This document shows, one piece after another, positions 45,044 through 47,003 of a stretch of 64,000 bases of DNA. Source of the DNA: Escherichia coli O157:H7 (lineage in GTDB: Bacteria; Pseudomonadota; Gammaproteobacteria; Enterobacterales; Enterobacteriaceae); NCBI RefSeq assembly GCF_013167455.1, contig NZ_CP038328.1; one strand, written 5' to 3'. Below the pieces are notes generated by a model, which made no database searches, was not told where the DNA came from, and was given only the letters and a program-made list of their open reading frames with translations. Each line of letters begins with the position of its first letter. Position 1 is the stretch's first letter. The position numbers and the translations under genes were made by a program.

Positions 45044-45307
45044 TCAGGCGCGGATTTGTTGTGATGTGGTTGTGCTCTGGCAGATGGCAACGTGTGCGAC
45101 GTCCACCAGTTTATTTAACTGACTAAACAGTAAGTCGACCGACCGTGGGCTGGCAACGGTCAATTCGATATTTATATTTTGTGCATCGCTGGCGGCGGCC
45201 ATATTCATTGAGCAGACGTGGAAACCACGATGACGCACCACGCGTAAAACACGTTCTAAGGTTTCCGGATTGAAGCGAGCCGATACATTGACCTGATGTT
45301 GCATCAT
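45044..45307 (-). CDS. ilvM: Acetolactate synthase II small subunit
   Basis: 87-aa [32 protein letters not shown]...; 4-nt overlap with ilvG stop. Confidence 0.93.
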
Positions 45308-46950
45308 GATAATTTCTCCAACATTTCTGAATTACTGGCACCAGGCGGCACCAGCGGCCAGACGTTCTCAAGTTCGTCGATTGAGACATGAAGCAGGTAT
45401 GGCCCATCACTGTTCAGCATGGTGTCGAGTGCCGCTTCAACCTGGTCTTTACGGGTGATGTGTTGGCCAGGGATGCCGAAGGCGCTGGCTAACTTGAGGA
45501 AATCGGGGTTATCGGTAAGGGTGGTTTCGCTGTATCGTTCCTGGAAAAACAGTTGCTGCCATTGTCGAACCATCCCTAACCGTTGGTTATCGAGTAAGAC
45601 GATTTTCAACGGTAACTGCTTGCGTTTTACGGTGCCCAGCTCTTGTACATTCATCATGAAAGAGCCGTCACCGGAGATACAGACGACGGTATCGTTTGGT
45701 CGCGCGACTTGCGCGCCAACCGCCGCCGGTAAACCAAAACCCATGGTGCCTAAGCCGCTGGAGGTAATGAAATTTTCCGGGCGAGTGTGTGCGATGTGCT
45801 GCGCGGCCCACATCTGATGCTGCCCCACATCTGTGGTCACAACGCAATCCGCAGGTTTACGATCCGACAGTTGTTTTAACAACAACGGCGCGTAGATAGC
45901 GTCACCGGGATGGTCGTAACGCCAGGCATGTTCATCACGCAGCTGCGCGCAGTATTGCTGCCAGTCATTGATATTTAATGGCTGCTGTAATGCTGGTAAC
46001 AGCGCATTTAAATCACCCTGTAATGCCACATGTGCCTGACGCAGCTTGTTCATTTCTGCCGGGTCGATATCCATATGGATAACACTGGCGTGTGGTGCGA
46101 AGGTGTTCAATTTGCCGGTCACCCGGTCATCAAAACGTGCACCCACGGCGATCAGCAAGTCGCACTCCTGCACCGCGAAGTTCGCCGCTTTGGTGCCATG
46201 CATTCCCAGCATGCCCAGATAGTACGGATAATCTGCTTCAACTGCGCCCAGCCCTTTCAGCGTGCAGGTGGCAGGCATTTTTGTGGTAGCGAGAAATTCT
46301 CGTAAAGCAGGAACTGCCTGCGCCATACCCACGCCACCACCAACGTACAGCATCGGTTTTTGCGCTTTTGCCAGCATCTGGCGCGCTTGCTCAACTTCGG
46401 CATGTGGGAAAGTCACTTCGTTTTCAACGGTGGTGAACCACGGTTCCAGGTCGCCGCTGGCTAACTGGATATCTTTTGGGATATCGACCAGAACCGGACC
46501 AGGACGACCTGAGCTGGCAACGTCGAATGCTTCAGCCATAATGCGCGGCAACTCTTCCAGCGACTGCACCAGAAAGCTGTGCTTGGTACAGGCTAACGAC
46601 AATCCCAGGACATCCACTTCCTGAAATGCGTCAGTACCGATAAACGGTGCGGACACTTGACCGGTGATGGCAACAACAGGGATAGAATCTAACAGTGCGT
46701 CCGCAAGCCCGGTTATCAGGTTGGTTGCGCCCGGACCAGACGTGGCGATACATACGCCAGTTTTGCCGGTAGCACGGGCATAACCGATAGCCGCCATTGC
46801 CGCACCCTGCTCATGTCGGCACAGCAAGTGCTCCACGCCGCCGTCATACAATGCATCGTAAACCGGCATAATTGCGCCACCCGGATAACCGAAAACGGTG
46901 TTCACACCCTGTGCCCGCAACGCATGTACCACCCACTGTGCGCCATTCAT
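45304..46950 (-). CDS. ilvG: Acetolactate synthase II large subunit, intact 548-codon reading frame
   Basis: Uninterrupted [41 protein letters not shown]... (ThDP enzyme). Confidence 0.95.
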
Positions 46951-46952
46951 AG

Positions 46953-47003
46953 TTAGTTCCCCGTCCTGAATCTTGGGAAACAGAATTTTGTGCTGTTATT
47001 CAT
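46953..47003 (-). CDS. ilvX: Small protein IlvX (16 aa) between ilvL attenuator and ilvG
   Basis: Minus-strand ATG AAT AAC AGC ACA AAA TTC TGT TTC CCA AGA TTC AGG ACG GGG AAC TAA preceded by GAGGAG RBS; name from memory; below ORF-track cut-off. Confidence 0.6.

Follow-up and report, generated by a model that had tools for sequence, protein, structure and literature searches.

The 5' end of the ilvGMEDA operon in Escherichia coli O157:H7 raises two questions, namely whether its ilvG gene, which carries a frameshift in K-12, is truly uninterrupted, and for what the 16-codon open reading frame that precedes it, ilvX, has been conserved. In the window, by which we mean the whole 64,000-nucleotide stretch of DNA that was analyzed, this locus is almost certainly the ordinary, ancestral 5' end of the ilvL-ilvX-ilvG-ilvM-ilvE-ilvD-ilvA operon of E. 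coli O157:H7, a statement that concerns its identity and its comparison with K-12. The genes ilvL, ilvX, ilvG and ilvM all lie on the minus strand of the window and are named as such by RefSeq beneath the match, the gene order ilvL-X-G-M-E-D-A is annotated in strain EDL933, and recent work writes the operon as ilvLXGMEDA (PMC9299463).

The ilvG reading frame in O157:H7 and in K-12

The features needed for the first question are the following.

44095–45024, minus strand: ilvE, the next operon gene, encoding a branched-chain amino-acid transaminase (EDL933 annotation mapped to the window, ORF list)
45044–45307, minus strand: ilvM, encoding the 87-residue small subunit of AHAS II (ORF list, NCBIfam NF008362)
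45304–46950 including the stop codon, minus strand: ilvG, encoding the intact 548-residue catalytic subunit of acetolactate synthase II (ORF, RefSeq WP_001012623.1)
45973–45974, minus strand: the dinucleotide AT at nucleotides 977–978 of ilvG (codons 326/327), missing in K-12 MG1655 (global alignment with NC_000913.3)

A preliminary description of this DNA, made from its letters, had read ilvG as an uninterrupted frame of 548 codons that encodes AHAS II, and both parts of this reading are borne out. The frame begins with an ATG at 46950, its stop codon ends at 45304, and in agreement with the ORF list there is no internal stop in its 548 codons. Residues 1–547 of IlvG align to positions 1–547 of the 548-position profile of the NCBIfam equivalog NF006524 (acetolactate synthase 2 catalytic subunit) with 1074 bits against a cutoff of 738, and the closest solved structure is that of the E. 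coli AHAS I large subunit (6lpi). The start codon of ilvM overlaps the stop codon of ilvG (ATGA), and its product, which is identical to IlvM of K-12, reaches 133.9 bits against a cutoff of 68 for the NCBIfam equivalog NF008362, so that both subunits of AHAS II score above their equivalog cutoffs. AHAS II is valine-resistant (PMC8406616), and in the third step of the mechanism proposed below ilvG and ilvM would together supply this isozyme, whose insensitivity to valine is taken from the literature. Since the two genes are expected to encode the valine-insensitive AHAS II, the O157:H7 strain should, judging from that literature, be valine-resistant and grow on minimal medium with valine.

The frameshift of K-12 MG1655 is absent here, as had been proposed. 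Global alignment of 2.4 kb of the window with MG1655 contains 57 substitutions and one internal indel, which is a 2-nt gap in K-12 at 45974–45973; the length of ilvG is 1647 nt in the window versus 1645 nt in MG1655, where the gene is the pseudogene b4488. Around the junction the window reads CCA TTA AAT ATC AAT GAC TGG (PLNINDW) and K-12 reads CCG TTA AAT CAA TGA, so that the 2-bp deletion in K-12 leads to a TGA at codon 328 and truncates IlvG at 327 residues. Seven further amino-acid differences between the window and K-12 are spread over IlvG. Owing to this frameshift K-12 makes no AHAS II (PMC8406616; PMC9299463; bioRxiv 10.1101/2022.03.07.483379).

The spread of the K-12 junction was followed with a 60-nt K-12 query centred on it, which was compared with 5426 complete E. 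coli genomes. The exact junction occurs in 340 of the 5426 (about 6%), and among the matches listed these are K-12-type strains, while all the other matches listed for this query span two extra bases in the subject. IlvG comprises 548 residues in nearly all of about 120 species loci that are long enough to tell. Because the junction is confined to about 6% of the genomes and the 548-residue length recurs nearly throughout the species, an intact ilvG is the norm in E. coli and in Enterobacterales generally, and K-12 is the exception. As the normal state of the gene, the intact ilvG therefore says nothing special about this strain; it is K-12 that departs from the rest at ilvG, a point of consequence for those who use K-12 as the "wild type" reference.

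That the strain is not wild-type K-12 at this position had also been stated beforehand, and its assignment to O157:H7 follows from the ilv stretch itself, which as a 2.1-kb query is 100% identical to EDL933 and to dozens of other O157:H7 genomes. Over its full 64 kb the window is collinear with EDL933 yet differs from it in sequence, and it is therefore from another O157:H7 strain. The same 2.1-kb query was matched in 5425 of the 5426 complete E. coli genomes, with 340 O157-like loci at an identity of at least 99%. The figure of 340 thus recurs for the O157-like loci and for the exact K-12 junctions; the strains differ among the matches listed, and the agreement was treated as a coincidence.

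The ilv leader, the attenuator and the position of ilvX

Upstream of ilvG, the window contains the following features of the leader region.

47090–47188 including the stop codon, minus strand: ilvL, encoding the 32-residue leader peptide MTALLRVISLVVISVVVIIIPPCGAALGRGKA, rich in Ile, Val and Leu (ORF list, EDL933 annotation)
47034–47067, minus strand: the attenuator terminator, a GC-rich hairpin GACCCCCGCACCGAAAGGUCCGGGGGU followed by eight U (sequence and fold)
46970–47259, minus strand: a match to Rfam RF02744 (Rev39 5'UTR, soft-rot Enterobacteriaceae; cmscan)
47010–47015, minus strand: the ilvX Shine-Dalgarno sequence GAGGAG, 6 nt before the ATG (sequence; the SD-like motif GAGG/AGGA is kept across species)
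46953–47003, minus strand: ilvX, a 16-codon ORF and its TAA (RefSeq 'peptide IlvX', WP_100635202.1)

In ilv attenuation, whether the terminator hairpin forms depends on the ribosomes that translate IlvL, with its many Ile, Val and Leu residues. IlvL of the window is identical to that of K-12 and matches NCBIfam NF007744 with 81.9 bits (cutoff 59), and the terminator hairpin is found in both the MFE and the centroid fold of the leader, with z = -3.45. A simple terminator and promoter scan of 46900–47600 missed this minus-strand terminator and returned matches at chance level only. The match to RF02744 extends over the full model (1–300) with 156.5 bits (gathering score 88); it takes in the ilv leader and the attenuator as well as ilvX up to two thirds of its length. 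This family owes its name to a candidate from transcriptomics in Pectobacterium, and in the window what it marks is the classical ilvL attenuator and not a separate RNA element. With these sequence elements present, the first step of the proposed mechanism would be the control of transcription from the ilv promoter by attenuation, through the translation of IlvL.

As ilvL and the attenuator terminator both lie upstream of it, ilvX is situated between the attenuator and ilvG. Its ATG occupies 47003–47001 and its TAA 46955–46953, and two nucleotides (CT) then remain before the ATG of ilvG. The coordinates, the peptide and the GAGGAG ribosome-binding site that had been given for this ORF, and its place between attenuator and ilvG, all proved correct. 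Small-protein annotation agrees with it as well, RefSeq carrying the ORF as "peptide IlvX" with b4669 as its K-12 counterpart; ilvX is thus a known small gene that is already annotated. The allele in the window has proline at position 10, where IlvX of K-12 has serine (46976 is C instead of T), and 15 of the 16 residues are identical. A 90-nt stretch containing ilvX is present in all 5425 E. coli genomes; it is identical in 308 of the 5425, those listed being O157:H7, and the non-identical ones carry one to four substitutions. Tagged IlvX protein has been detected in K-12, according to the citation of Hemm et al. 2008 and 2010 in PMC9299463. The latter study found ilvX enriched in GcvB interaction data sets and saw no significant change with an ilvX reporter fusion (PMC9299463).

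Conservation and codon pattern of ilvX in Enterobacterales

For a survey of ilvX, one genome per species was scanned for degenerate DNA encoding MNGAQWVV, with which IlvG begins, and this yielded 120 loci, nearly all from Enterobacterales, 117 of them usable. Of these 117, 96 contain an ORF that has a Shine-Dalgarno sequence and starts with ATG or, in 7 cases, with GTG; it is 16 codons long in 89 loci. Two nucleotides separate its stop codon from the ATG of ilvG in 87 of the 96, and in 89 of 96 the starts of ilvX and ilvG are 53 nt apart. In the few ORFs of another length the difference is one of whole codons, or the frame continues as far as a TGA overlapping the start codon of ilvG. The spacer between the terminator U-tract and ilvX ranges from 23 to 54 nt across species. 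The ORF is missing in Photorhabdus, Xenorhabdus, Budvicia, Edwardsiella, Pluralibacter and a few others, and one Cedecea locus that was scored by script as being without it contains, on inspection, a 19-codon ORF ending at an overlapping TGA. The preliminary description had made its reading of ilvX depend on whether the ORF is conserved, and conserved it is, with near-fixed length and stop in the 96 loci that keep it.

The manner of this conservation is unusual. The information content at codon positions 1, 2 and 3 is 1.31, 1.04 and 1.12 bits, respectively; the second position is the least conserved, and this is therefore the reverse of ordinary purifying selection at the protein level. In codon 5, isoleucine is always encoded by the rare ATA (59 of 59) and threonine always by ACA (20 of 20), Lys 6 is AAA in 70 sequences and AAG in one, and codon 7 ends in C in 81 of 81 while its second base varies, so that the residue may be F, S, C, Y, H or L. 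Positions 2, 3 and 9–14 vary freely, radical changes included. Cys 8 is invariant with synonymous variation between TGT and TGC, and Lys 6 and Gly 15 are nearly invariant, the Gly 15 codon GGG doubling as the Shine-Dalgarno sequence of ilvG. The pattern at Cys 8 hints at some peptide-level constraint or at stop avoidance. The ilvG Shine-Dalgarno sequence is no stronger in species without ilvX (medians -6.5 versus -5.7 kcal/mol, in a small and phylogenetically clustered sample), and this comparison thus lends no support to a dependence on translational coupling.

A candidate Lrp box and the readings of ilvX

The most conserved nucleotide block of ilvX resembles an Lrp box.

46981–46995, no strand assigned: the imperfect palindrome CAGCACAAAATTCTG, ilvX codons 3–8, Lrp-box-like (most conserved ilvX nucleotide block)

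This 15-mer, CAGCACAAAATTCTG, has two mismatches to YAGHAWATTWTDCTR on the plus strand and two to AGAATWWWATTCT, which are published E. coli Lrp consensus sequences quoted in PMC5554404. At the same place, 95 of the 117 species have a 15-mer with 0–2 mismatches to the Lrp consensus, compared with 0.4% of 75-nt ilvG control windows, and the four variable alignment columns of the core are the degenerate positions Y, H, W and D of that consensus. Edwardsiella keeps a perfect CAGAATAAAATTCTG though it has lost the ilvX ORF, and the core likewise persists in Pluralibacter without an ORF. A scan of the 64-kb window alone for the Lrp consensus gave 2–3-mismatch matches at chance level, 75 being found and 68 expected, so for this question the cross-species comparison alone is informative; the species compared are related, so that in evolutionary terms the conserved box amounts to a single observation. 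Lrp is reported to repress ilvGMEDA (PMC8406616), and the title of Rhee et al. 1996, as cited in PMC6123439, refers to an interaction of Lrp with the ilvGMEDA leader region. A search of the accessible literature for published Lrp ChIP data over ilvX found none. Because the core matches the Lrp consensus, part of its conservation is probably at the DNA level. We rank the connection with Lrp as a lead and not as a demonstrated result, since the matches in the single window are at chance and the species are related.

Other accounts of ilvX were weighed against the same observations. Sixteen codons are few enough to arise by chance, and the ilvX fusion was unregulated in the GcvB reporter study (PMC9299463), so that ilvX might be an accidental ORF in a conserved untranslated spacer, with no role of its own. 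This is very improbable given that at least five Enterobacterales families share the start codon, the Shine-Dalgarno sequence, a length of 16 codons and a stop beside the ATG of ilvG, that length variants keep to whole codons or run into the TGA overlapping the ilvG ATG, and that the adjacent spacer varies by tens of nucleotides; translation, too, has been reported (Hemm et al. 2008, 2010, as cited in PMC9299463). Found in the same place and at the same length across species, and annotated in RefSeq, ilvX is by this comparative evidence more than a chance ORF. The peptide could instead be what is selected, the 16 residues acting in trans, for example as a cysteine-containing regulator or an enzyme-associated peptide, with the conservation reflecting selection on amino acids. 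The fixed ORF length, the invariant Cys 8 with its TGT/TGC variation, the near-invariance of Gly 15 and Lys 6, and the tagged protein detected in K-12 (the same two papers, again as cited in PMC9299463) are what such a function would lead one to expect. We nevertheless regard it as improbable, because it is the second codon positions that are least conserved and positions 2, 3 and 9–14 are free to undergo radical changes, whereas the synonymous sites of codons 4–7 are frozen (ATA, AAA, NNC), which is the opposite of purifying selection at the amino-acid level. Moreover, Gly 15 (GGG) has its second use as the ilvG Shine-Dalgarno sequence, and in Edwardsiella and Pluralibacter the nucleotide core has outlived the ORF.

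A constraint on nucleotides could also act on the mRNA, the core forming a hairpin (CAG..AAA..CUG) that controls translation of ilvX or ilvG or processing of the message. The 15-mer is indeed an imperfect palindrome, and in Yersinia, Pantoea and Edwardsiella it would give a perfect stem of 6 bp around an AAA loop. RNAalifold, however, predicts no such helix on the 81 unique sequences, the fourth stem pair is a standard one in only 9 of the 81, there are no compensatory double changes, the sole variation being C/U opposite G, and the E. coli sequence pairs differently in its MFE fold. With neither an RNAalifold helix nor compensatory changes in the 81 unique sequences, the hairpin was rejected as the main explanation of the core, and we consider it a distinctly remote one.

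The reading to which we lean, tentatively and with somewhat less than even confidence, is that ilvX would be selected mainly for being translated, with a fixed length and stop, together with a DNA signal in its core, the sequence of the peptide being less important. In the second step of the proposed mechanism, transcripts that read through the attenuator would carry the 16-codon ilvX, which has a strong Shine-Dalgarno sequence and ends two nucleotides short of the start codon of ilvG. Translation of ilvX could then hand ribosomes to ilvG or keep the mRNA covered, and the DNA signal of the core would most likely be a putative Lrp operator. The more specific proposal that ilvX doubles as a DNA operator, with the candidate Lrp box at 46981–46995 and the ORF kept for the act of translation and not for the peptide, is rather doubtful. 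If it is true, the operon would be controlled a second time, by Lrp, at a point downstream of the attenuator, and IlvX would be a 'small protein' that is conserved largely not at the protein level; Rhee et al. 1996 may already cover part of this.

Taken together, every element of the observation on ilvG and ilvX is already known and annotated in RefSeq, and only the Lrp-consensus-like conservation at the nucleotide level that the species comparison suggests inside ilvX is mildly new, and it is a lead. The pattern of frozen synonymous sites, free second positions and agreement with the Lrp consensus offers a testable hypothesis for the conservation of this small ORF, and it cautions against equating the conservation of small ORFs with a function of the peptide.

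Set beside E. coli Lrp operators such as the ilvIH sites, the ilvX core has two mismatches in the window and 0–1 in most species, and it stands alone, unlike the arrays of sites to which Lrp usually binds. The corresponding locus of K-12 MG1655 (NC_000913.3, 3950322–3952464; b3766, b4669, b4488 and b3769) has the same genes in the same order and with the same spacing as the window. In other Enterobacterales, among them Salmonella, Citrobacter, Enterobacter, Yersinia, Pectobacterium and Erwinia, a 548-residue IlvG is likewise preceded by a 16-codon ORF with a Shine-Dalgarno sequence; the core AGCAYAAAAUUCUG is common to their ilvGMEDA operons, and the peptide is free outside the pattern M-x-x-[SR]-[IT]-K-x-C...G-x.

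Leader of the ilv operon and an ilvX variant in Kluyvera

Upstream of ilvG, the sequence gives a full-length match to one Rfam family:

46970-47259, minus strand, RF02744, 'Rev39 5'UTR of soft-rot Enterobacteriaceae'

This match is in effect the classical ilvL leader and attenuator together with the start of ilvX, so that the family name conceals a well-known element.

In the Enterobacterales ilvG survey, the locus from Kluyvera genomosp. 3 (L087) has a GGGG run upstream of ilvG that is shorter by 1 nt. The run affected corresponds to both the ilvG Shine-Dalgarno sequence and ilvX codon 15, and because of this 1-nt deletion the ilvX frame is shifted, so that the ORF bypasses the usual TAA and enters ilvG out of frame. 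This locus is a naturally occurring ilvX frameshift, and could serve as a test case.

Ribosomal, transfer and regulatory RNAs

The structural and regulatory RNA features of the window are as follows:

50481-55703, minus strand, complete rRNA operon (16S, tRNA-Glu, 23S, 5S, tRNA-Asp, tRNA-Trp)
14511-15173, minus strand, tRNA cluster Arg(ccg)-His-Leu(cag)-[Pro-like]-Leu(cag)-Pro(tgg)
14739-14813, minus strand, truncated tRNA-Pro copy
10675-10881, minus strand, GlmZ sRNA (218 bits, at gathering threshold)
31758-31857, minus strand, trxA 5'UTR thermometer family (78.8 bits, at gathering threshold)

The rRNA operon is ordinary, and a StyR-44 match falls in its 16S-23S spacer region, adjoining the 5' end of the 23S gene. 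GlmZ and the trxA thermometer are E. coli features as expected. In the tRNA cluster, tRNA-Leu is duplicated and the truncated tRNA-Pro copy lies between its two copies. The truncated copy is identical to the real tRNA-Pro over ~63 nt and diverges at the 3' end; it is called as a tRNA by ARAGORN, has an Rfam score of only 34.6 bits, and carries no annotation in RefSeq EDL933.

Comparison with EDL933 and K-12

The window is not identical to O157:H7 EDL933, from which it differs by a few isolated substitutions at scattered positions. In an ungapped comparison the register was lost from about EDL933-oriented position 54645 onward, and this loss indicates an indel near window position ~9355. The sequence therefore derives from an O157:H7 isolate other than EDL933. 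The EDL933 annotation also identifies a toxin gene:

37088-37537, plus strand, PemK/MazF-family type II toxin gene (WP_000996692.1)

This gene of 450 nt is intact, with ppiC and rep as its neighbours on either side, whereas in K-12 MG1655 its position is occupied by the 449-nt pseudogene yifN (b3777). Besides ilvG, it is the second gene in the window for which O157 has an intact copy and K-12 a broken one.
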